Shown here piece by piece: positions 3,001-29,102 of a stretch of DNA of 64,000 nucleotides. The position numbers and the translations under genes were made by a program. This stretch comes from a virus, in IMG/VR virus record IMGVR_UViG_3300017728_002360; one strand, 5' to 3'. The notes beneath the pieces were generated by a model, which had not been told where the DNA came from, ran no database searches, and saw only the letters and a program-made list of their open reading frames with translations. Position 1 is the stretch's first letter; each line of letters opens with the position of its first letter.

Positions 3001-6000
3001 AAGTATCAAAGTTATCTGTATCTAAATCATAGAAATCTTCAAACTGTTTTGCTTTGTAATCAAAGTTTGCCATTAGTCCTGGCTCTGGTCGTTTATCTAA
3101 ACGTTCCCATTGTTTAGCATCAAAGTTTAATTGTCCTGGAATTTTTACTTTTGCAACATAATAAAATTCTTTGTGTTTTACTGTATCGCCAACTGCGTAA
3201 TCTGTCCACTCTGCCCATTCTGTAACCTTGGCATTGTCATATATAAATCCTGGAATGTTAAAGCCACCAGTCCATTTGTCTGTTCTGTAGCCCATAACTT
3301 TTATTCTTGACTGACGGTAGCCTGGTTCTAGATCGTAAATGTAATCTTTAAACACAGTTGTATTGTCTAATAATACAACGTGTTCAGTTTGTACTAATGG
3401 TAACTTAACACTAAAGATTCCGTCCGGTGTATTTTTAGTAGTGATCTCAATCCTGTTATCATTGTCTCTATAAACACTTGCATAAGCAGGAATTAATTTT
3501 TTACCATCTGCTTTGAATAAGTTATAACCGTAAAAGTTATCAAAGATATCATCAGCTACGTGATATTTTTTATAGTAGCAAATCTTGTTTGCACCAGCAC
3601 TTAAAGTAATAACACTTTTTTCTGCCCAGTTCTGTGTAGTCCAGAACATATATTCTTTTGCACTTAAACGCCAATCCTCAACTTCGTTTATATCTGTATT
3701 GTAATTCTCAAAAACAAATCCTTGAACTTTTAAATATCTTTCATAACCTAGCAAGAAGTCTACTACTTGTTGAATAGTTTGTAATTGTGTTCCGTAAGCA
3801 AGTTCTAATGGTTCGTCATTTATTCCTTCATTCCACTGTCTATGGAATACTGCTGTTCTGCCACCCTCTACAGGAAGTTCTGGCATAGCAACAAATTTTG
3901 TTTGATCAAAACTTTCAGCGGCAATGTGTTGGCTTTCTGTCATAAAGTAACGTCCACCAAACTCTACAATTAGTCCTGGGCTGTAACTTTGTCCTTCTGT
4001 CCAAGTTACAAAGTCTGCACTTACTCCGCCCACTCTCACTACAGGATCGTCTGCTAATGATATTGGTGAGTAATATTTAAAGTAAGGATTATTATAGTTG
4101 TAACCTCTAATAACAAATCCGCCTTGGACCTTTTCAATGATTACACCACTGTATGGAACAAGGTCAATTACACTTGACTTGTTTAAAAATATTTGATAGT
4201 TTTCTTCAGGAACAAACACGTTACCTTCGTTGAACGGTGTTCTTGAATCTAGTATAAGTTTAAATTTACTCTTGTCAGTAAATCCGCCAATCTTTAATCC
4301 TAATTGGTTAGTAACATTTTTAAGATCTGTTTGATAATTTTTGTAATACTTAACTGTTCTACTATTCATGTAATCATGAACATAGTTTACTAGTCCTGCT
4401 GTTTGTACTCTAATAGTATCTGAAGTTGTATTAGGAAAAACAACATCTTCAAGTCTTAATCTTTTATTTGTTTCACTGTAAATAACTTCTTTAGCAGGGT
4501 TACGTTTAATTCTTGATCTATCATAACCTAGTCCTAAGATTTTAGTTGGCTGATTTAACAACCAAGCAATCATTAGTGCAAATGGATACTCTGAACTTCT
4601 ACGCCAAGCTGTTTCTGTAGGTGCTTGATCTCCAAACACAAACGTCTGTTGTGTTCTATTACTAATATAATCTTTTGCATAGTTTGAATCCAATGGACTT
4701 AACAGTTCGCCGCCATCATCTACAGGAATATGTTTTGTTATATTTGCTCTAGCATACTTGCTGTTATAAGTTACAGGTTCATTAGGTATTCTATATGCAC
4801 CCTTCTCTATGTCTTGCCATAGTATTTTATTTTCACTTGTATAAGGTGCCGCACCATAAACAGTCTGCCACCAAGTTGGCTCTTCGCTGTATCCTAATAT
4901 TTCCCAAGGGTGTGTATGAGGACGATCAGTATCATATGCTTCTTTGTATATTGCTCTCCAATACCCTGCGTTTTGTTTTCCGCTTGGACTATTGGTGTTG
5001 CTGTAATTAAATGTAAAGCTGTTAGTTCTTGACCAAAAGCTGTTATCTGCATAGTCCGGAGAACCTACTGCATTATTCCATTCAATAAATTCTGGTAACA
5101 ATGACTTGTCTCTAGCTGATCTTGTAAATGTTGTATCCCTACTTTCACCGCCGATGAATTCAAATATGTTTATCATAGTAGCATCATATTCTACTTTGAT
5201 ATTATTATAAATTCTTTTTTCTAGTTCTAATAATAAATCATCTCTAAAGTCTTCGTACGCAACAAAAATACTTCCGTCGTGTCCTTGAATAACTTTAGTT
5301 GGAACTTGATATGTTGTATCAGTAAATATCTCTGGTTTAAACTTTGGATACAAACCTAGTTTAGTAGGAGTTGCAGGAATGTAACTTCCGTCAGTTGTAT
5401 TGTATTCGTAAATATCAATAACATCATTAATAACTTTTGTTTTAGTAATAGTTACAAAGCCACTAAAGTCTGATTCAAATTTGTAATCAGTGCCTTCTAT
5501 AAGTTGAACCCCATTTATATAAACGTTTACGGACTTATTAGAAAGTGTTGTAAGATCAAATGCTGTATTCAATGCGTAATATTGTGTGCTTGGATTCTCT
5601 ACAACGTGTGTTGACCTCTTAGCACTTGTATAGCCAAGCATATCACTGAAGTAGAACGGCATATCATTTGACTTATCTTTATTAAGTTTTTCCATCACTA
5701 AATCAAAGTGAATCTTATTCTGTCCGTCAAATCCTAGCTTGTCTGCTGTTTGTAAGAACAGCTTTCTAAACTTGCCGTATTCTCTTTTTGCAAATTGTAA
5801 CGATTTAATAATGTTAGCATCTTTGCTTGTGATATGATAGTTTGCTAAATTAAATGGTCCACTGTGTTGTACAAATCTGTTACCATATGCAGATAAATTT
5901 CCTAAATCTCTTAAATTACCTGTACCTGGAAAGTCTCCTACAAAATCATCACGCATCTCGCAGATGCTTAACACATGATCGTTAACTTCACCTAGTGTAA

Positions 6001-11300: not shown

Positions 11301-11847
11301 GTACACCTTCAACTGTATCTTTCTTGATAGGTTTTCCAACTGTGCTGTTTACCGGTAATGCCGCATTAAGAACTTTTTCAAATTGTTCTCTCCAATTGAT
11401 GTTTGACGGATCGTTCCATAGGATAGTTTGACTAGCTAGGTTAGTTCCGTTGCTGTCTACAATATCTTCTGTTGTAGCAATACTTTCAAACTTTAATAAG
11501 CCGTTAGCACATTGGTTACGTTTTGGACTGTATGATAAGAGTCTAGCTAAACGTAAAATTGATTCTCTACGTTCAGCTAACTCTAAAAAGTTTTCTCTTG
11601 CATTTAAATCTACGCGGAAAGCTAGGTTTTGACCTAGGAAAGCAATTAGGTCAATAAGTGCAAGATATTCACTTGATTCAATATAGTCGTTAAAATCTTC
11701 TGGATAGTTCTGTCTTAAATAGTTGATCATTGTTCTGCGTAAGTTATCAAAGTCATATGACTTGAACTCCGCATTTCTAAATGACTGATAGACCTTCTTC
11801 CAATCTTCAGCTAACAATAATCTATTTTGTCTATTTGTTGACGACAT
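8317..11847 (-). CDS. gp6: Baseplate wedge protein, gp6-like, with Ser-rich C-terminal tail
   Basis: N-terminal YDFDNLRRTMINYL...FNDYIESSEYLALIDLIAF...ENFLELAERRESILRLARLLSYSPKR, plus FSDGTFGNLPKG and APSTYYTQNRMVTGEDY, match T4 gp6/baseplate-J family motifs. Adjacent to a gp25-like gene. Confidence 0.85.
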   Translation of the reverse strand: MSSTNRQNRLLLAEDWKKVYQSFRNAEFKSYDFDNLRRTMINYLRQNYPEDFNDYIESSEYLALIDLIAFLGQNLAFRVDLNARENFLELAERRESILRLARLLSYSPKRNQCANGLLKFESIATTEDIVDSNGTNLASQTILWNDPSNINWREQFEKVLNAALPVNSTVGKPIKKDTVEGVPTDQYRFDSSNSDVPVYTFSKNVDGKNMQFQVVSTNVTGGVIEEEAPLPGNNLAFLYRDDGRGPGSSNTGYFAHFRQGILDQGTFNVDSPSTNQTISLEATNVNNTDIWLYKLDSIGAESESWTKVDSIEGNNIVYNSLRKSIRNIYGTLSKTQDKVDLIFSDGTFGNLPKGQFRVYYRTSINDQYNIVPSDLVAISVTIPYTSKTGNPENITLSLELKYTVDNATVSETNASIRENAPSTYYTQNRMVTGEDYQVSPLGISQEIIKTKSVNRTSSGISRYYDLLDSTGKYSSTNLYGADGIIYKDKFTEKKTFTFSTKTDVQGVIANTITPILSQKQMLNYYLTNFPKTLVADLGAKWSQKTAITNQATGSFVDVTDSTLQVGTFTSSALKFIEAGTLLKFVAPTGFHFMSNNSHALMQGNADHPNAITYKWVKVVSVTGDGRTDNDDGTGPIILNDIIPTGAILSELRPKFGKTLLSDVQSQIVDQVFAFKTFGLRYDVNLRQWRMITQNNLDITSDFSTGKTGDVTDQQLDSSWLLLFETDGEKYTITSRGQRYIFESNEEIRFYYDSTSKIFDNRTGQIIKDKINILSINTRPDSTSAFTVDYPWEVSKEYRDGDGYIDSKKVEISFFDSDSDGVVDDPETFVTVVDEATNPLTKYIFQKKYTTSDGIEDYKYMDNSSNAVQIKQSESVVGALSSYTDGQVFYLVTEGVFKIYSSTAGTLALTTDYKAYVGRDGIKFHYIHSADDDSRIDPSSSNIIDTYLLTRTYDTNFRQYLDGTLTAKPLPPSSDNLFNNYGGEINKIKSISDDVIYHPVKYKVLFGAKADAQVQANIKIVKNPDQVVNDNDIKARVISAINEYFALENWDFGDSFHFSEMATYVMNQVAPDLVNIVIVPKQDSQGFGSLYEIKSESDEVFISGATVDDVTIIDAITASKLKASGTVITGTTATTSGVTSGSSYTSGNTTSSSSSSSSSSSSSSSSSSSSGSSGSGY
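8344..8403. repeat. Tandem 15-nt repeat x4 (30-nt unit x2) encoding poly-Ser
   Basis: actgcttgaactaga / actgcttgaacttga / actgcttgaactaga / actgcttgaacttgt, read directly. Confidence 0.9.
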
Positions 11848-11869
11848 TTTGCTTTCCTTAATATAATAC

Positions 11870-11896
11870 TATTTATTTGACTTCATAATCTGCGTA
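11870..11896 (-). promoter_or_regulatory. T4-type late promoter TAAATA with upstream TACGCAG element (14-nt spacer)
   Basis: Minus strand reads TACGCAG-ATTATGAAGTCAAA-TAAATA upstream of the gp6-like start. Confidence 0.7.
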
Positions 11897-11897
11897 C

Positions 11898-12329
11898 TTA
11901 ATACGGTGCGTTATTTTCATCAAATTTTAGTCTTAAACTTTCTGAAATATTATATGGCAAATACATCAAGTCTACGTCTACTTGAAGTCCGCTTTCATAT
12001 GAATCTATGTTAATTTTACTTGCTACCACACGTGGGTCGCTGTTTACAATACTTGTAACGTTCTTTGCTATGGCTTCTTTCATTGGTTCTGTTAGCGGTT
12101 CGTGTATTGCGTCCCATATAACTGTTCCAAAAGTAGGATTCATCAGCTTTTCACCCTGTCTTATATGAAAATGATTCAGTATATCTTGTTTGATCAATGC
12201 TATGTCAAACAGGGATTTGCTGTTGTTATTTGGATTGACCGTGCTTAACCCTTTGTATGCACGATTAGTGACTACGGGTTTGCCTCTGTCTGCTGTTGGA
12301 ACTGTGATTTTTTTATATAAGTCTGCCAT
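11898..12329 (-). CDS. gp25: Baseplate wedge subunit, gp25/GPW-like
   Basis: LIKQDILNHFHIRQGEKLMNPTFGTVIWDAIHEP...DPRV is the gp25-family pattern. Size 143 aa. Confidence 0.9.
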   Translation of the reverse strand: MADLYKKITVPTADRGKPVVTNRAYKGLSTVNPNNNSKSLFDIALIKQDILNHFHIRQGEKLMNPTFGTVIWDAIHEPLTEPMKEAIAKNVTSIVNSDPRVVASKINIDSYESGLQVDVDLMYLPYNISESLRLKFDENNAPY

Positions 12330-12341
12330 AACAATATTTAC

Positions 12342-13901
12342 CTATCCTTTAAACTCCTTCTTGAACACATCTGGCGTAGTTGGGTTTGGTAGTGGATTAG
12401 TTACTGTAGTAATAGAATCCCTATCCGTAAGCACTATTTTAAATGCCAATGGGTTTAAGTTTTCATGGTGTGTCCATGGTTCTTCCTGTGGTGAACGTTG
12501 TGAAAGAATGCCTTCGATTGTGTGACCAGGTACGCGATGTACAGACAGAGCGGACGCGGTAGCGGCCGTAGCCGCCTGCGGTCCATTCATATGGATTTCG
12601 GAAGCGGTTTCTATATGGTTTCCTGAGCTGAGTATTTCTGTTGTTGAACCTGCTGTAAGTTTGTTACTAAAGCCACTATTAATATCAAGGTCCATTTCTG
12701 TTGTGATCTTTGTGCTACCACCTACAAGTATGTTTGTGTCCTTGTCTGATTCTACCTGTACCCTGCCTACAGAAAGTTTTTCACCCTTGTAATCACCTGA
12801 TGCTTTTAGGCTTAGATTAGCACCTGCTTCTATTGTGACGTTTCTGTCTGCTGTAAGGTTAAAGTCGTTTTTTGTGTGCATACTGATTGAGTCTTCAGCA
12901 AATATATCAATCTTACCATCTGAAGTTAATTCAAGCCAAGCTGTACCTCTGCTGTTACCTATGTAGATTAAATCTTCCGTGTTGTGTAATAATATTTGAT
13001 GTCCTGTACGTGTACGCAGTCTTACTAATTCGTTGTGTAATAGGTCTGACTTACCGTCGGTCTCTCCAAGGTTTACGTTTGCATATTCTGGTGCTCCGTC
13101 ACCTGCAGATTTTTTTCTTAGGTACTTGTCATTACCGTCGTCAAATACCAAACTGGTTCCGCCGAGTCTTGCCTTAAATACCGTTGTAAAGTCTTCCTTT
13201 GATCCTATCTTTGCTTTAGGCGATCCTATACTCTTGTCAATGGGTCCTGGTGTGCTTATTCCAAATACCGCACTAGGTACTTCACGTCTTGCACTTGAAC
13301 TTGTTATACCACGTGTTTCGTCGTCCAACAATCCTTGTGCCATAAGGCTATCAGTAAATTCTTTCTGATATGGCTTTTTAAATTTTGTAGGATCCTGGTG
13401 TACCGCTGTTTCAATTTTTTTATTGTATTCACCCGTTGGTAATTTCTTACCTTTTAAATAACTAGGCGTTCCGTCCGTTGTATATGTGGTTGCGGCGTTG
13501 CCAGGTACTGCAAAGTTTTGATACTGGTCATTTACACAACCTATCCAGTAACACATATTTGGATTACCTTCTGCAAATATAACAAGTACCTTTGTTCCTA
13601 CGTCTGGTGGAACAAACCACATACCGTAACTCTGTTGTGATTCCTTGTAGCTGTCATTCTTTGTGTTTGCAAACGCAGGTGTGTTACCTGCAAACGGTGA
13701 AAGATATTTTGCAGTATAAAGTTCGCCATCTGCAAACGCTTCGTTTGATGCTGTGTTTGTTTTTAATAAGTTTACAGTAAGGGCACCATGATATGTTGGA
13801 TCCAAGTTATTGATAACGATAGCCTCATACGGGCCTGGCTCCATGGTTACTATTTCATGCTTACTAGTTCTGTCTATGTTTTGATTTCTTTGTACTGCCA
13901 T
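12342..13901 (-). CDS. gp5: Baseplate hub central spike, gp5/VgrG-like (no lysozyme domain evident)
   Basis: OB-fold motif SYGMWFVPPDVGTKVLVIFAEGNPNMCYWIG, then RTRTGHQILLHN and a beta-helix-like C-terminal region. Next to gp25. Confidence 0.8.
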   Translation of the reverse strand: MAVQRNQNIDRTSKHEIVTMEPGPYEAIVINNLDPTYHGALTVNLLKTNTASNEAFADGELYTAKYLSPFAGNTPAFANTKNDSYKESQQSYGMWFVPPDVGTKVLVIFAEGNPNMCYWIGCVNDQYQNFAVPGNAATTYTTDGTPSYLKGKKLPTGEYNKKIETAVHQDPTKFKKPYQKEFTDSLMAQGLLDDETRGITSSSARREVPSAVFGISTPGPIDKSIGSPKAKIGSKEDFTTVFKARLGGTSLVFDDGNDKYLRKKSAGDGAPEYANVNLGETDGKSDLLHNELVRLRTRTGHQILLHNTEDLIYIGNSRGTAWLELTSDGKIDIFAEDSISMHTKNDFNLTADRNVTIEAGANLSLKASGDYKGEKLSVGRVQVESDKDTNILVGGSTKITTEMDLDINSGFSNKLTAGSTTEILSSGNHIETASEIHMNGPQAATAATASALSVHRVPGHTIEGILSQRSPQEEPWTHHENLNPLAFKIVLTDRDSITTVTNPLPNPTTPDVFKKEFKG

Positions 13902-17668: not shown

Positions 17669-18502
17669 ATGAAAAGAGTGAACTATCTTAACAATAGAGA
17701 TATACTGAAAGAAATACACAGGTCCAAAAACACATTTTGCAGTTACACAGATGACGATTATGCACAATATGATATTATTTTACCTAGTGTTGACAAAATT
17801 AACATAAGAACTATAGCAGAAGCTAAAAGAAACCAGGCGAAACGGCTTGGTTTGAAGGAATATGAAGCAAGGAAGGAAGCCGGCGAGAAAGTTAAGCAGG
17901 CCGAATGTGCTGTAGACTACAAAAAGATTGCTAAAACCAACGTTATATTTAGAGTTATGACGTATGATCACGTTCCAGAAGAAAAAGGTAGGAAGAAAAA
18001 TCCTAAAACGATAGCAGATACCAAGACAAAACTTAATTTTCCACCATTTGTGCATTACAAGTTTGATGACAAGGATAACCTAGTATTGGTTGGTAAAAGC
18101 CATTGGGAAGGCGGAATGGAGAACGGATCATTTAACAAGGCACACGGACAAGCTACAAACAAGTTGGCTTTGATGTGGATGAAGCTTTGTGAACGTTATG
18201 CAACAAGAGGTAACGTTAGAGGTTACACTTATAATGACGAGATGAAAGGTCAAGCAATACTCCAACTAACACAGATTGGTTTGCAATTCGATGAATCAAA
18301 ATCTAATAACCCGTTTGCTTATTACACGGCGGCGGTTACTAATTCATTTGTAAGAATTATTAACATTGAAAAACGTAATCAAAATATTAGAGATGACATA
18401 CTTGAAATGAATCATATGAATCCTTCCTTTACTAGACAAAATCAGGGTCAGTGGGAAAAATCTGTTGAAGCACACAATAAAGAAAGTTCTGATAAGAAAT
18501 AG
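17669..18502 (+). CDS. gp55: Late-transcription sigma factor, gp55-like
   Basis: NYLNNRDIL at the N-terminus and RGYTYNDEM...FDESKSNNPFAYYTAAVTNSFVRIINIEKR. Directly upstream of gp47/gp46, as in T4-like phages. Confidence 0.85.
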   Translation: MKRVNYLNNRDILKEIHRSKNTFCSYTDDDYAQYDIILPSVDKINIRTIAEAKRNQAKRLGLKEYEARKEAGEKVKQAECAVDYKKIAKTNVIFRVMTYDHVPEEKGRKKNPKTIADTKTKLNFPPFVHYKFDDKDNLVLVGKSHWEGGMENGSFNKAHGQATNKLALMWMKLCERYATRGNVRGYTYNDEMKGQAILQLTQIGLQFDESKSNNPFAYYTAAVTNSFVRIINIEKRNQNIRDDILEMNHMNPSFTRQNQGQWEKSVEAHNKESSDKK

Positions 18503-18559: not shown

Positions 18560-19576
18560 TTGTTTAAGAAAGTAGCAGTATTTACAGATATCCATTTTGG
18601 ATTAAAGAGTAACTCTAAGATCCATAATGATGATTGTGAAGAATTCATTGATTGGTATATAGAGCAGGCGAAAGAAAACGGTTGTGAGACCGGAATCTTT
18701 TGTGGTGATTGGCATCATAATAGAAATAGTTTGAACATTACTACAATGGACGCAACTATTAGAAGCCTTGAGAAACTAGGAAAGGCTTTTGAAAAGTTTT
18801 ATTTCTTTCCTGGTAACCACGATCTATATTACAAAGACAAAAGAGATATTAATTCAATTGACTTCGGTAGACACATACCGGGTATTACAATGGTCAACGA
18901 AATGATGACCGAAGGTGATACTACACTTATACCTTGGTTGGTTGGTGATGAATGGAAAAAGATTCCTAAGATAAAAAGCAAATACATATTTGGTCACTTT
19001 GAACTTCCAAACTTTTATATGAATGCTATGGTACAGATGCCTGACACAGGTGAACTACAAGCAGATCATTTCAAGAACCAAGACTATGTATTCAGTGGTC
19101 ACTTCCATAAACGCCAAGTAAAAGGTCCAGTTCATTATATAGGTAATGCTCTTCCTCACAATTACGCAGATGCTTGGGATGATGAACGTGGTATGATGAT
19201 ACTTGAAGCTGGTGGTGAACCACAATATATCAACTGGTGGAACTGTCCGAAGTATAGAACAGTAAAACTTTCAAGATTATTAGATGAGAAAGACACACTT
19301 ATAAAAAGTAAAATGTATCTACGTGTTACATTGGACTTGCCTATTAGTTATGAAGAAGCAAACTTCATTAAAGAAACATTTATGAAGGATTATGACTGTA
19401 GAGAAATTAGTCTTATACCTAATACACAAGATGATGAAATAAATTCAGACATTGATATCACAAAGTTTGAAAGTGTGGACGAAATTGTCGCAAAAGAGAT
19501 TGAAGCAATAGACTCAGACAGCTTTGACAAAGCAAAACTACTGAGCATATATAGAGATTTGAACAAAGATGATTAA
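18560..19576 (+). CDS. gp47: Recombination endonuclease subunit (Mre11/SbcD-like)
   Basis: Metallophosphoesterase motifs DIHFG, GDWHH, GNHD, GHFE and SGHFH. TTG start. Confidence 0.92.
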   Translation: MFKKVAVFTDIHFGLKSNSKIHNDDCEEFIDWYIEQAKENGCETGIFCGDWHHNRNSLNITTMDATIRSLEKLGKAFEKFYFFPGNHDLYYKDKRDINSIDFGRHIPGITMVNEMMTEGDTTLIPWLVGDEWKKIPKIKSKYIFGHFELPNFYMNAMVQMPDTGELQADHFKNQDYVFSGHFHKRQVKGPVHYIGNALPHNYADAWDDERGMMILEAGGEPQYINWWNCPKYRTVKLSRLLDEKDTLIKSKMYLRVTLDLPISYEEANFIKETFMKDYDCREISLIPNTQDDEINSDIDITKFESVDEIVAKEIEAIDSDSFDKAKLLSIYRDLNKDD

Positions 19577-21341
19577 GATAAAAAGCATTACAGTAAAAAA
19601 CTTTATGAGTGTGGGTAATACTACACAGGCAGTCGACTTTAACAAACAACAACTAACGTTAGTGCTTGGTGAAAACTTAGATCAAGGAGGTGACGATTCT
19701 GGTTCACGTAACGGTACAGGTAAAACTACAATAATTAACGCATTGTCTTATGCTCTGTACGGCCAAGCACTAACGAACATTAGAAAAGATAACCTAGTTA
19801 ACAAAACTAATAATAAAGGAATGTTGGTTACACTAACATTTGACAAAGACGGCAAGGAATATAAAGTTGAAAGAGGCCGTAAGCCTAACACTATGAAGTT
19901 CTTTATTAATAATGAAGAACAAGAGCTTACAGATCAGTCACAAGGTGATAGTCGTAAAACACAACAAGACATAAATGAACTGCTAGGTATGAGTCATGAT
20001 ATGTTCAAGCATATTGTGGCACTTAATACTTACACAGAGCCCTTCTTAGCACTGAAAAACAATGACCAACGTGCTATTATAGAACAGTTACTTGGTATTA
20101 CAATACTTTCTGAGAAGGCAGACTTGTTACGAGAACAAACACGTATTACTAGAGATAAACTTACTGAAGAAAATGCTAGGATATCAGCAGTAACAAGCAG
20201 TAATGAAAAGATTAAAGAAAACATTGAACGTTTACACAGCAGACGCAAGGCTTGGATTGCACAAAACAAACAAGACTGTGATAAACTTGCAAAAGCAATT
20301 AAAGAACTAGAACAACTAGACATCGACAATGAACTAGAAGATCACGAAAAACTAAAAACGTGGGAAGAAAGCACAAAACATCTTAACAACCTTAAAAAAG
20401 AAAAGTCAACAGTTGAACGTGCATTGGAACAAGCTGATAACAATGTAAACAAACTTGGTAAGGACTTGGATGATCTAGAAAGTGCCAAGTGTTATGCTTG
20501 TGGTCAAGAACTACATGATGACAAACTTGAAGAAATGAAAGACAAGTTACAAAAGGATTATGGTGATGCCCATGTTTATCAAACTAGCATGGCAGACAAA
20601 CTACAAAAGGTAGAAAAGCTGATCGAAGAGGTTGGTGACCTTGACTCTAAACCTAATACATTCTATGAAACTGCCAAAGAAGCATACCAACACAGAGGTA
20701 ACGTTGATAGTTTAACAAAGAGCTTACAAGATAAGACAGATGAACTAGATCCATATCAAGAACAGATTGATGATTTAGAGAAAACTGCAATACAAGAAGT
20801 TAATTGGGATACCGTAAACGATCTTAATAGCACAAAAGACCACATGGACTTCTTATACAAACTGTTAACAAACAAAGACAGCTTTATACGTAAGAAGATC
20901 ATAGACCAGAATTTAGCATACCTAAACAACAGACTTACATACTACTTAGACAAGCTAGGACTTCCGCATACAGTGGTGTTTAAGAACGATCTAAGTGTTG
21001 AAATAACACAACTAGGACAGGATCTAGACTTTGATAACCTAAGTAGAGGTGAACGTAATAGACTTATACTTGGTATGAGTTGGGCATTCCGTGATGTATG
21101 GGAAAGTTTATATCAAAACATCAACTTATTGTTTATTGATGAGTTGGTTGATAGCGGTATGGATGCAAATGGTGTTGAAAACAGTATGAGTGTTCTTAAG
21201 AAGATGGGTAGAGAACGTCAGAAGAACATTTACCTTATATCGCACAAGGAAGAACTTGCTGGTCGTGTAACTAACGTACTAAAAGTTATTAAAGAAAACG
21301 GATTTACGTCATATGACAATGATGTTGAAATAATGCAATGA
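19569..21341 (+). CDS. gp46: Recombination ATPase subunit (Rad50/SbcC-like)
   Basis: Walker A NGTGKTT, coiled coil with CYAC zinc hook, signature LSRGE, Walker B LFIDE and ISH. Confidence 0.93.
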   Translation: MIKIKSITVKNFMSVGNTTQAVDFNKQQLTLVLGENLDQGGDDSGSRNGTGKTTIINALSYALYGQALTNIRKDNLVNKTNNKGMLVTLTFDKDGKEYKVERGRKPNTMKFFINNEEQELTDQSQGDSRKTQQDINELLGMSHDMFKHIVALNTYTEPFLALKNNDQRAIIEQLLGITILSEKADLLREQTRITRDKLTEENARISAVTSSNEKIKENIERLHSRRKAWIAQNKQDCDKLAKAIKELEQLDIDNELEDHEKLKTWEESTKHLNNLKKEKSTVERALEQADNNVNKLGKDLDDLESAKCYACGQELHDDKLEEMKDKLQKDYGDAHVYQTSMADKLQKVEKLIEEVGDLDSKPNTFYETAKEAYQHRGNVDSLTKSLQDKTDELDPYQEQIDDLEKTAIQEVNWDTVNDLNSTKDHMDFLYKLLTNKDSFIRKKIIDQNLAYLNNRLTYYLDKLGLPHTVVFKNDLSVEITQLGQDLDFDNLSRGERNRLILGMSWAFRDVWESLYQNINLLFIDELVDSGMDANGVENSMSVLKKMGRERQKNIYLISHKEELAGRVTNVLKVIKENGFTSYDNDVEIMQ

Positions 21342-21550
21342 TCAACGACGATACACACGATAAACTAACCAAAGCATATTTGGAATATTACAAGGCCAAC
21401 GAAGCATGGGAAATACGCAAGAGCGAACGTACCAAAAGATCGGCAAGAAAATGGTTAAGTGAGATACGTAGACTGTGTAGCGACCGTAGAGTTGAGATCA
21501 TAGAAGAGTACAAAGCCAAAAAAGAAACGTCTAGCAGTGATACTGAGTAA
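21338..21550 (+). CDS. Small hypothetical helical protein (70 aa)
   Basis: ATGA overlap with the gp46 stop; coherent charged helical sequence. Confidence 0.7.
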   Translation: MINDDTHDKLTKAYLEYYKANEAWEIRKSERTKRSARKWLSEIRRLCSDRRVEIIEEYKAKKETSSSDTE

Positions 21551-21558
21551 GTATCAAT

Positions 21559-21981
21559 ATGCAATGGACATATAAGGGCAAATCAATAGAAACATTACCA
21601 GAGGATTGTGAAGCATTCGTGTATCTAATCACGAACACAACCAACAATAGAAAATACATAGGTAAGAAACTAGCAAAGTTTAAAAAAACAAGACCACCTC
21701 TTAAAGGTAAGAAGAATAAACGTAGAAGTAAAGTTGAAAGTGACTGGAAGGACTATTGGGGTTCATCAGATCACCTACAACAGGACGTACAACAATTAGG
21801 CGAAGACAAGTTTACAAGAGAAATACTATATTACTGTGAATCAAGAGGCATAGCAAGTTACTTAGAGGCAAGAGAACAGTTTGAACGTAGGGTATTAGAA
21901 ACAGATGACTACTACAACGGCATTATAAACGTTAGGGTAGGTGGATCTAAGATACTGCGTGAAGGCCTAAAAGGCAAATAA
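21559..21981 (+). CDS. Stand-alone GIY-YIG endonuclease (140 aa, catalytic domain only)
   Basis: FVYLITNTTNNRKYIGKK, YWGSS, FTREIL, conserved E (LEAREQ) and YYN: Seg-like GIY-YIG motifs. Confidence 0.85.
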   Translation: MQWTYKGKSIETLPEDCEAFVYLITNTTNNRKYIGKKLAKFKKTRPPLKGKKNKRRSKVESDWKDYWGSSDHLQQDVQQLGEDKFTREILYYCESRGIASYLEAREQFERRVLETDDYYNGIINVRVGGSKILREGLKGK

Positions 21982-22052
21982 GCCACTTTTACAACAACAA
22001 AAATTACTGTACACTAATATACTGTGTAGGCAAATTAAATTTCATCTATATA

Positions 22053-22472
22053 GCAACATTGTTTGGTCGGGGTAGCTCGACTTACCTTGAGGTCACATCG
22101 ATCTGTGACTGGATACTGGTACGTTGCACGGCTTGATGCTAACGTAGGCATTAAAAGATCGTGGCTCTGAGAAAAAGCAACCACAACGTTAATATACTTT
22201 GCTTAACAGGGGTATATTAGTGTTCCGAGACTATTGCGAAGGCTGTAGTAGGGGGTTGGCGAGTTTCCGCCTCCGTACATATTATATGTAATCTACTTTG
22301 TTAAGATGGTACGCTTATCTCACATGATGGCTATTATCGACTTCGTCCGGAGACGGGCGAAGTATGGCTCAACTATCTACATGATGCAAAAGTGCTTCGC
22401 ACTTATATTAATCATACATAAGAAAAAAGTGTTTGAGCATAGCGAAAACACAGATGAGCTGTTTGCTCATCT
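22053..22472 (+). ncRNA. Candidate large structured RNA downstream of the GIY-YIG gene (boundaries approximate)
   Basis: About ten hairpins. They include a 15-bp stem with 4 G-U pairs (22185-99/22210-24) whose loop CTTAACA is complementary to TGTTAAG (22299-305), and a 10-bp stem with a GAGA tetraloop (22340-63). No credible ORF. Confidence 0.6.
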
Positions 22473-22480
22473 ACTAGACA

Positions 22481-22675
22481 CTAGTGTAATTCAGGATCAC
22501 GTCCATAACGGAACGCATCACTATCATACACTTCGACAGCTACAACTTCGTATTGCTTGTTAGGGTTTACATCCACTAACTGTGCAACAGTTGAATCTGC
22601 TTCATACTCATCACTGCACTGAGTCACAACCTCTTTGGTGTTACACTCAATAACATTATATCTTGTTTGAGGCAT
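22481..22675 (-). CDS. Small hypothetical protein (64 aa)
   Basis: ORF with natural composition, preceded by minus-strand TAAATA (22682-87). Confidence 0.65.
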   Translation of the reverse strand: MPQTRYNVIECNTKEVVTQCSDEYEADSTVAQLVDVNPNKQYEVVAVEVYDSDAFRYGRDPELH

Positions 22676-27058: not shown

Positions 27059-27616
27059 ATGGCTGACTATAAAATAACCAATTATGTAGATTATGAAAAA
27101 TTAGAACAAGCTAGGCTTATGTTAAAGCAAGAGCTTGATGCTTTTATGCCAGATTACAGCAAAGTACAGCAAATTGGTATGGATTTTGATAGTTTTTACA
27201 ACACAGGCGTTAAGGATAATTGGCGTACTATTGCTGTAAAGCTAGGAGATAACCAAGACCCAGTAGAACACGCAGATAAATTTTCAAACACGTTAGAAAT
27301 ATTGAGTGAGTGCAAAGGTGTTGAAAATTTTGGAATGAACTTTGTAAAACCATATGGCCGCATTATGCCACATACTGATCCTGAAGTTATAGTTGATGGC
27401 AAGGAAGTTCCGTTTATTAATTGTTTGGCCGGAGTTGTTATTCCATCACCTAACGTACACAAATGTGGTATGAAGTTTGACAATAAGGAAGTAGCTGTAG
27501 CCGAAGGCGAATGGGTAACTTTCTTACCTAGTACAAAACATAGTGCTTGGAACTATACGGATCATTATAGATTGACTTGTATGTCAACTATTAATTTAGA
27601 ATATTTCTCTTCTTAA
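27059..27616 (+). CDS. Fe(II)/2-oxoglutarate dioxygenase, aspartyl/asparaginyl beta-hydroxylase-like
   Basis: IMPHTD (HxD) and distal HSAWNYTDHYR, typical of the Asp/Asn hydroxylase family. Confidence 0.75.
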   Translation: MADYKITNYVDYEKLEQARLMLKQELDAFMPDYSKVQQIGMDFDSFYNTGVKDNWRTIAVKLGDNQDPVEHADKFSNTLEILSECKGVENFGMNFVKPYGRIMPHTDPEVIVDGKEVPFINCLAGVVIPSPNVHKCGMKFDNKEVAVAEGEWVTFLPSTKHSAWNYTDHYRLTCMSTINLEYFSS

Positions 27617-28666
27617 ACCTTCTCTAGCAACATCAAGTGTTAGACAATGTATGCCACCTTCAAAAAATGTGCCGTGTCTTAAAGGAACATAATCACAATC
27701 TATCTTATATTTTTTTAGATACGCAAACAGCTCAGGAATCTCTCTGCTAAACAAAACACAGTTATGGTCTAGAACTAAGACATTAGTGTCAAAGGATATT
27801 TCTTGATCGTAGCCTCTCCACTTATCTAAATAAGTGTCTAACCATTGTTCGCTGTACATACCCTCTGTCTTGTTAAAATCTTCTTTGTGTTCAGCAAGTG
27901 GACCCATATGATCTTTTGTTAAATGTCCTATCTCAATAATCTGTTTGTCACGCAAGTAACTTGGTACCCACTCAATGTTATCACAAACAATAGTTTCATC
28001 ATTTACGAAAAAGAATCCATGATCAATATGTCCCCAACCGTTCATTACAGGACTGTCATTAGCAACTATCTCTACTTCGGTAATATTTTTCTTACACCAC
28101 TCTAGTCCTTTTTGTGTGCCTGGACCTTGTGTGTTTGTTATAAGTTTGTCACCTGCTTTGTACATTGTAGCAGTATGCCATAACACCTTGTCTTTTAATA
28201 GGTTATGATAAATTTCCTTACCACCATTCCACCATCTAGTTGCTGGATCTAAATCAGTAAGTTGCGGACTAGGCTGTGATATCCAGTTATAGCCAGTATC
28301 GTTAAAACAATTATAAAAGCTGTGCCCGTCAAAGTATCTATCAGTTAAACTAGTGTATGTTTGATATATTGTTTCGTTGATTACAATGTATTGATCTCTT
28401 GGTACTATAGGACTGTTAGGAAACTTAATATCAAACGTAGGTAATGTAATACGTTGTGGTTTGATTGTTTCAGGACGTCTTACATTACACCCATAACTTT
28501 TTAGCTTGTTAGTTAATGCAAGTAAATCTTCTTTTGTTTCTTCAAGTATTAGATTGAATTGTTTCCTAGGTCTCTTACTATGCAATAACTGATCAAAACT
28601 TCCAGGGCTGTGGCAGTCACCAACAATAACATCTGTAAGTTTATCCCACTCTGTCCATATCGCCAT
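27596..28666 (-). CDS. Amidinotransferase-family (pentein) protein
   Basis: WTEWDKLTDVIVG, PRDQ, GHIDH, NVLVLD and GGIHCLTLD with the catalytic Cys, as in glycine and inosamine-phosphate amidinotransferases. Confidence 0.85.
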   Translation of the reverse strand: MAIWTEWDKLTDVIVGDCHSPGSFDQLLHSKRPRKQFNLILEETKEDLLALTNKLKSYGCNVRRPETIKPQRITLPTFDIKFPNSPIVPRDQYIVINETIYQTYTSLTDRYFDGHSFYNCFNDTGYNWISQPSPQLTDLDPATRWWNGGKEIYHNLLKDKVLWHTATMYKAGDKLITNTQGPGTQKGLEWCKKNITEVEIVANDSPVMNGWGHIDHGFFFVNDETIVCDNIEWVPSYLRDKQIIEIGHLTKDHMGPLAEHKEDFNKTEGMYSEQWLDTYLDKWRGYDQEISFDTNVLVLDHNCVLFSREIPELFAYLKKYKIDCDYVPLRHGTFFEGGIHCLTLDVAREGLRREIF

Positions 28667-29102
28667 AATTAAATATCTCTTCTAGGTATTCTTTGTCCCA
28701 ATAAGAATAGTAGTCAGTCTTACTTAATCGTTCTCTAGCTGACAAAAGTTCTTTTTTGGTTTGTGCTATTATCAAAGGTACATACCCGTTTCCTGTTTTT
28801 ACTCCTTTGATAAATGTTTCCCTGTGTGGATGATCAGGTAAAAATATGTGAGTTGCATACTTGTTATTAAGAGCCTTGCATAGTTCGTCTATTTCAGTAA
28901 ATGTTGAATTTACTTCTGTTTCACAGTAGATCGTAACTTCTTCTGATAAGTTTTCAAACTGTTCCATATCTAGCTTATCAGCAGTGATTACAGGTGGCAT
29001 TTTCTTTACAAAAGGACAAATGCTGTAATTTCCTATTTCAGACTGAGGTTTTGTGATATGTTCCAGCCAGATTCCTAGTTTGCGTTCAATATTTTCTGGC
29101 AT
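28641..29102 (-). CDS. Hypothetical protein (CPF motif, DUF1415-like)
   Basis: ICPFVK, LPDHP and LSARERL..TDYYSYW. Overlaps the amidinotransferase start. Confidence 0.55.
   Translation of the reverse strand: MPENIERKLGIWLEHITKPQSEIGNYSICPFVKKMPPVITADKLDMEQFENLSEEVTIYCETEVNSTFTEIDELCKALNNKYATHIFLPDHPHRETFIKGVKTGNGYVPLIIAQTKKELLSARERLSKTDYYSYWDKEYLEEIFNYGDMDRVG

Follow-up and report, generated by a model that had tools for sequence, protein, structure and literature searches.

Does a compact phage nuclease that is followed directly by a large structured RNA work together with that RNA, or do the two genes serve separate functions side by side? The question arises at one locus of the 64,000-nt window analysed here (IMG/VR record IMGVR_UViG_3300017728_002360), for which an earlier note, made from the sequence alone, proposed a nuclease–RNA system that might be RNA-guided. 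Comparison with related phages leads us to a different reading, to which, taken as a whole, we give a probability of about 0.5: the nuclease and the RNA sit side by side where a gp55-gp47-gp46 recombination operon ends, and each has a job of its own.

The operon and its GIY-YIG nuclease

Pfam and PHROG searches identify gp55, gp47, gp46 and baseplate genes in the window, which is part of an uncultured marine PA5oct-like jumbo myophage. CheckV completeness of related contigs gives a genome size of ~350 kb; one relative (G006, 382 kb) has ~42 tRNA calls, among them one with a CUA anticodon, a possible amber suppressor. The presumed operon, on the + strand, is opened by the late sigma factor gp55 (17669–18502; phrog_12791, E 1.5e-77) and continues with the recombination nuclease subunit gp47/SbcD (18560–19576; Metallophos) and the recombination ATPase gp46/SbcC (19569–21341; Pfam and comparison with cultured phages), in a gene order identical to that of MIJ3. 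The nearest cultured relatives of gp46 are those of PA5oct, MIJ3 and Paride (49%), with Phosso and Atu_ph07 also among them. Between gp46 and the nuclease lies a conserved orphan ORF of 70 aa (21338–21550, +), which matches no family in Pfam or PHROG and precedes GIY-YIG genes at 221 and Hjc-like genes at 12 of 233 loci. The nuclease gene occupies 21559–21981 (+) and the ~420-nt RNA 22050–22474 (+), its ends being placed by conservation; a conserved convergent 64-aa gene (22481–22675, − strand; 49 matches, none with stops) bounds the RNA. Further along, a minus-strand cluster (27059–29102) appears, by eye, to encode an aspartyl beta-hydroxylase-type oxygenase and an amidinotransferase-like enzyme, suggestive of auxiliary metabolism.

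The nuclease matches Pfam SegE_GIY-YIG (PF19835, E 2.8e-35) and phrog_447. As the earlier note had recognised, it is a minimal GIY-YIG protein of 140 aa with a basic insert and no C-terminal extension; the insert, a predicted hairpin, spans residues 42–58. Residues Y22, Y33, G35, E103 and N120 are invariant among its homologues, and a dN/dS of 0.05–0.10 indicates that the gene is under strong purifying selection. The closest structure to the predicted model is the I-TevI catalytic domain (Z 7.0, rmsd 2.6, 77 residues aligned); a Foldseek search with the model returned nothing at E ≤ 0.001, and sequence searches gave no relative of solved structure. The protein is predicted to form a homodimer through residues 121–129, with a model score of 0.73 against 0.00 for the best control, agreement between runs in at least 96% of contacts and pLDDT of at least 90; among proteins of known state, 20 of the 30 homodimers and one of the 23 monomers score as high. 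Homologues in other phages come after RecA or an exonuclease, and the family is widespread and single-copy in cyanomyophages. In one relative (L099) the nuclease ORF spans 405 aa, by insertion or fusion.

The catalytic family PF19835 is shared with T4 SegE and free-standing GIY-YIG homing endonucleases. Unlike the Seg type, the window nuclease is single-copy, widespread and under purifying selection; its 140 aa without C-terminal DNA-binding domains, its low dN/dS and the lack of a sporadic, decaying distribution led us to reject an assignment as a Seg-type homing endonuclease. The PHROG and RefSeq label of phrog_447 on hundreds of phage records, 'NAD synthetase', is evidently a misannotation.

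A doubly pseudoknotted RNA gene

The gap behind the nuclease holds no credible gene, as had been noticed before: an 85-aa ORF inside it was discarded, being broken by stops in 45 of 65 homologous matches. The gap folds more stably than 100 of 100 shuffled sequences (z −4.4). Homologues of the RNA were fetched at 80 loci via the protein and at ~240 further loci via two RNA motifs, and covariation was tested on an 80-sequence alignment (61% mean identity) by an APC-corrected G-test against a tree-based null of shuffled substitutions. Pairs covarying above every null include 22161–63:22182–84 (the top pairs), 22277–78:22288–89, 22188–89:22221–22, 22196:22213, 22245:22296 and 22095:22106. A second count, on 42 sequences, found 86.9% of cells paired, against 43–54% in slid controls, and two-sided changes in 37 of 50 pairs. 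One G-U pair never varies (42/42) and U-G dominates at two further pairs, which fixes the RNA on the + strand. The 420-nt element is an RNA gene selected for a compact, doubly pseudoknotted fold.

Specifically, a 5′ multi-helix domain (22053–22128; 22095:22106 significant, 22086:22118 suggestive, outer helix drawn by eye) is followed by a hairpin (22161–22184) with the top covarying pairs and a highly conserved CUCUG...AAAAAG...CAAC internal motif. The next element is a long stem (22185–22224) of 15 bp (22185–99/22210–24), four of them G-U, whose loop forms pseudoknot 1 (22202–08 with 22299–305); three pairs of this pseudoknot (22205–07:22300–02) exceed all nulls, two are borderline, and all seven show two-sided changes. 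Pseudoknot 2 (22227–32 with 22262–67), missed in the earlier note, has three pairs above all nulls (22228:22266, 22230:22264 and 22231:22263) and 98.6% of cells paired. The core multi-helix domain (22245–22296) contains the invariant G-U pair, 22253:22272. In the 3′ domain, a GNRA-capped stem (22340–22363) separates two copies of a short box, and perfect terminal hairpins (22393–22474) close the element.

Every helix that the earlier note had named, from the 15-bp stem and pseudoknot 1 to the GNRA stem and the terminal hairpins, lies where it was placed, and the + strand that the note favoured is borne out by the invariant and dominant wobble pairs. The covariation check that it proposed downstream of homologues likewise found conserved structure in 80 relatives. 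The individual helices differ: pseudoknot 1 and several helices covary, but the GNRA stem is conserved with no significant covariation, and the 3′ hairpins (22393–22474) show no significant covariation in the 80-sequence alignment. These hairpins include a terminator-like site on the minus strand (22474–22450) and probably also terminate the convergent gene; in MIJ3 such hairpins are equally stable on both strands. In the window and its relatives, triloops of the form C(GNA)G are frequent in them, on one strand or the other; as DNA, a mini-hairpin of this kind is very stable. The hairpins may function in the DNA itself or terminate transcription in both directions.

In four studies, marine RNA libraries yielded contigs that span the RNA at ~99% identity and 2–4x depth, and the adjacent genes as well; they weakly support its transcription and reveal neither strand, ends nor level. 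No late-promoter word stands directly ahead of the RNA. An Rfam scan gave no match for the window RNA at E ≤ 1, nor for ten close relatives at E ≤ 5, and BLASTN gave none in cultured phages. A pattern scan of 185,579 prokaryote genomes returned chance matches apart from one phage contig in a Legionellales bin, which has the GIY-YIG gene upstream.

The RNA is nevertheless related to Polynucleobacter-1 (RF01718), an RNA family of unknown function, from which it diverges and which it exceeds in length. We class it as a relative rather than a formal member because the RF01718 gathering score of 37 bits is not reached (21.3 bits in the best relative tested) and the 5′ domain is different. Most Polynucleobacter-1 members lie downstream of a family resembling P-SSM2 PSSM2_218/GOS11034 (PMC2864571); PSSM2_218 is a member of the window's GIY-YIG family, and the two RNAs share this location. 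By eye, the motif hairpin and the 7-bp loop pseudoknot recur in the 'tail' of the published alignment, and the flanks of the authors' sequences show the twin boxes (PMC2864571). The Rfam model, in contrast, has no core, pseudoknot 2 or twin-box domain. In one relative (G012), a weak RF01718 match (E 0.002) lies ~40 nt 5′ of the match to our core model. Among sequenced phages, Weinberg et al. (2010) found no Polynucleobacter-1 RNA, and the nuclease went unrecognised in their study (PMC2864571).

Could the RNA instead be a ribozyme or a derelict group I-type intron, beside which three kinds of nuclease alternate as homing endonucleases? Catalytic RNAs typically have double pseudoknots and G-U pairs that never vary, the word GAGACUA is reminiscent of the group I R element, and in some relatives (L158 and L176) an additional GIY-YIG gene of homing type, 233 aa long, has entered between the nuclease and the RNA. 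The GAGAC word varies freely, however, and the helices do not follow the order P7-P3-P8-P7. Rfam gave no intron or ribozyme match at the E values given above, the RNA is flanked by two complete convergent genes with no gene interrupted, and the nuclease beside it is the conserved, single-copy protein without a DNA-binding extension described above. We regard this explanation as quite improbable, and with it the intron remnant that had been listed as an alternative falls away.

Different nucleases beside the same RNA

The adjacency on which a nuclease–RNA system had been proposed is the rule: the RNA lies behind the nuclease in 69 of 69 loci collected nuclease-first, and a GIY-YIG gene lies beside the RNA in 88 of 102 and 76 of 83 loci collected RNA-first. 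In PA5oct-like jumbo phages, the slot beside the RNA is held by one of a GIY-YIG protein, a D14/Hjc-like resolvase or endonuclease VII. Some of the exceptions carry a PD-(D/E)XK protein (PF24608; phrog_244, 'RusA-like Holliday junction resolvase'); the RNA is detectable behind this gene in 42 of 75 such loci and a GIY-YIG gene occurs in none of the 75, and those loci without detected RNA that we inspected carry divergent RNA versions. Endonuclease VII in the slot defines a third group, with clear RNA matches in four cases.

Resolvases of the T4 endonuclease VII (gp49) and T5 D14/Hjc-like types occupy the same slot by gp46/gp47 as the GIY-YIG protein and are mutually exclusive with it. Two nuclease types occur together in none of 333 loci with gp46 and a nuclease (a redundant set), and the exclusivity also holds across whole records. 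In four genomes, each at least 92% complete, the Hjc type occurs and SegE GIY-YIG does not; neither the Hjc type nor endonuclease VII is present in nine partial genomes with GIY-YIG, in P-SSM2 or in Melnitz, an absence that in fragmentary genomes falls short of proof. Neither D14 nor endonuclease VII scores above the cut-off in cultured phages bearing GIY-YIG, phiN3 having a weak, sub-threshold endonuclease VII match. Among the resolvase families surveyed, the distribution of the GIY-YIG protein is thus complementary to that of D14/Hjc-like and endonuclease VII resolvases.

On a quick gp46 tree, 14 nuclease changes are required, at least five of which the GIY-YIG label forces; where sister clades differ in their nuclease, their RNAs are 72–78% identical, of the same type and with the same box. 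By these sequence comparisons, the nuclease is exchanged repeatedly under an RNA of constant type and box, and the RNA is inherited with gp46 and not with the nuclease. In some loci the nuclease is inverted and the RNA remains on the gp46 strand. The RNA is also found relocated next to a nucleosidase gene, with a perfect sigma-70 promoter and no nuclease nearby, an independence that the earlier note had itself named as counting against its proposal.

We propose that the nuclease is probably a homodimeric branched-DNA (Holliday-junction) resolvase, because of its fold, its invariant residues, the purifying selection, the dimer prediction, its alternation with resolvases and its RecA or exonuclease neighbours. 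It would do, guide-free, the job of D14/Hjc-like proteins or endonuclease VII in sister phages; like the GIY-YIG protein, these are small and dimeric by prediction, but their folds are unrelated to it. The swaps could also be selfish, since GIY-YIG, PD-(D/E)XK and endonuclease VII folds all occur as homing endonucleases too. A GIY-YIG domain can resolve Holliday junctions in SLX1 and HIGLE (PMC9071465), although these are eukaryotic and have extra domains or partners. In T4 relatives, other nucleases have been proposed to replace gp49 (PMC2993671). A weak match in Aeromonas phage 65 was set aside, being 65p046 and not the proposed gp49 substitute 65ORF061w.

A ribonucleoprotein of GIY-YIG protein and RNA would, in its strongest form, have the dimer use the two identical boxes for a symmetric DNA site. 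The constant adjacency in the nuclease-first loci, the predicted dimer with its basic hairpins and the company of RNA and nuclease in small phages too (see below) fit such a particle. The same RNA type and box, however, stand behind unrelated nucleases or none, many cultured phages have the nuclease without the RNA, and the basic hairpin is kept in homologues with no detectable RNA, in Melnitz (73% identical protein), P-SSM2 and phiN3. In addition, no nuclease residue tracks the box variants, and no variable guide next to a constant scaffold was found: variation between close strains falls in loops, stems and a variable-length linker, not at the ends. A dedicated ribonucleoprotein is therefore the least probable of the explanations considered here.

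Known guided systems offer partial likenesses. OMEGA systems (IscB/HEARO, TnpB) also join a compact nuclease to a structured RNA, but their effectors have a RuvC/HNH fold, whereas the protein here is an exchangeable GIY-YIG nuclease; the RNA has no Rfam HEARO match, and RNA and effector are not obligately co-inherited. TIGR-Tas systems resemble the locus in their paired short boxes and differ in their Nop protein, which we did not find in five related genomes; nor do these show the reverse transcriptase that a DRT2-type template RNA would call for. An RNA-guided nuclease system is not supported on present evidence.

Unrelated small phages (26–31 kb contigs) carry the RNA upstream of the same GIY-YIG family, in the opposite order and near terminase genes, and this recurrence argues for some functional link to the nuclease. 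Because the position is shared in two phage types, it suggests that the RNA acts at the resolvase's stage (recombination, replication or packaging) without an obligate complex. Four loci (L314, L228, L200 and L210) show a type B RNA upstream of GIY-YIG near terminase genes, one of them on a contig of 25.8 kb that is 89% complete. Another RNA variant occurs in a different phage context (L098, L151 and L185), behind an opposite-strand 179-aa ORF of no known family.

None of ten cultured phage genomes, among them that of MIJ3, gave a significant match to our model of the RNA (R1). MIJ3 has, beside D14, a syntenic 1.5-kb gap that is 99% identical in PA5oct, Paride and eight others. On the gp46 strand this gap has a perfect sigma-70 promoter; the family motif hairpin occurs once in the MIJ3 genome (288 kb), within the gap; the 3′ part of the gap folds strongly (z −7.4, against −2.0 on the opposite strand); and a possible twin word lies around a similar hairpin. 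Synteny, strand, motif, promoter and folded 3′ end tentatively identify a distant homologue of the RNA in PA5oct, MIJ3 and Paride, ~1.1 kb long and on the gp46 strand (4480–5990 of the MIJ3 locus L400; PA5oct NC_071039 75668–77177). The region is currently unannotated or annotated as four to six tiny hypothetical proteins, and the four annotated PA5oct ncRNAs are at other locations. In Sinorhizobium phage Phosso, a strongly folded 1-kb gap at the corresponding place (11410–12425 of locus L402, z −5.6) has a resolvase gene on one side and an RNase HI gene on the other.

Two boxes that change together

A duplicated module, made of RUGR, a linker, NN(C) and a box, forms the 3′ domain; the earlier note had not picked out its two boxes. 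Box 1 (22319–22328, +) reads CU, an extra C, then ACAUGAU, with AUGG ahead at 22306; box 2 (22377–22385, +) reads CU then ACAUGAU, with AUGG ahead at 22364. The relatives have at least 14 box variants, and the two copies agree at seven of nine positions in 80 of 80 sequences. The box finder took the best match, which biases these identity counts upward; the alignment-based covariation test concurs, with 22322/22379 and 22323/22380 covarying significantly by identity in the 80 sequences. Parsimony requires 22 changes for box 1, 23 for box 2 and 23 for both jointly. The extra C of box 1 is kept in 73 of 80 sequences; within the box, position 6 is always A, and AUG, GUG or AUA mostly fills positions 3–5. 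The two boxes thus co-change by identity and not by complementarity, a pattern that is unexplained.

An outside partner could read both boxes, either a dimeric phage or host protein or an RNA in trans such as an anticodon loop, with the RNA as its sponge or scaffold. Two homologous modules, each with RUGR and box, would suit such a reader, as would the invariant A and the restricted positions 3–5, to which the specifier codons of T-boxes are a parallel. Each box variant would then, however, need three coordinated changes, some 22 times over. Moreover, in the window and two large contigs, words matching the RNA's own box show neither enrichment nor depletion, and the module has no other convincing copy there; neither a reverse transcriptase nor a Nop-domain protein was found in five relatives, four of which have genomes at least 92% complete. 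We consider an outside reader unlikely.

Because none of these signs was found, nor a complement of the box inside the RNA, nor a nuclease residue that tracks it, we prefer explanations in which two coordinated changes suffice. One takes the element for a replication origin whose transcript, in the manner of ColE1 RNA II, folds and remains hybridised to its template as an R-loop or primer; by annealing of box 1 to the DNA strand complementary to box 2, the element's own DNA would be the reader. Recombination-replication genes adjoin the RNA, the corresponding structured gap in Phosso has an RNase HI gene behind it, a G-run lies at 22251–55, and the cumulative GC skew has its minimum ~4–8 kb upstream. 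But the G-run is paired within the RNA fold, the skew turn coincides with a switch of gene strand, the RNA is relocated in some relatives, and the conserved extra C of box 1 would be unexpected in a plain hybrid. This explanation, too, appears rather unlikely.

The other, which we favour tentatively though at well below even odds, is that the boxes need no outside reader: they may pair with each other in parallel, like with like (A-A, C-C, G-G, U-U), clamping the 3′ domain. Parallel homo-pairing would need only two coordinated changes per box variant. To our knowledge, no natural RNA has a run of parallel like-with-like pairs as a tertiary motif. In crystal and in solution, a DNA 11-mer whose sequence almost equals box-1 variants adopts a parallel duplex in which all four kinds of homo pair occur (PMC4330391); this precedent, being DNA and no natural RNA, speaks to feasibility only. 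The folded RNA might serve, as its neighbours faintly hint, as a structural scaffold or decoy at their stage, in recombination-dependent replication or packaging. That the homo-paired RNA works with any resident Holliday-junction resolvase, for example as a junction mimic that restrains the enzyme or delivers it to the packaging machine, is a doubtful extension.

The RNA is very widespread within an abundant clade of giant aquatic phages (jumbo phages), and large, ornate bacterial and phage RNAs have repeatedly been found doing fundamental biochemistry. For the nuclease, the slot swap offers a testable answer to how junctions are resolved in T4-like phages without gp49, which is absent here from P-SSM2 and Melnitz; hundreds of phage genes now called 'NAD synthetase' call for a corrected label, and, if the reading is true, the cyanomyophage gene of that name would represent a new phage resolvase family. 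The probable homologue in the culturable Pseudomonas phages PA5oct, MIJ3 and Paride would make the function of the RNA directly testable.
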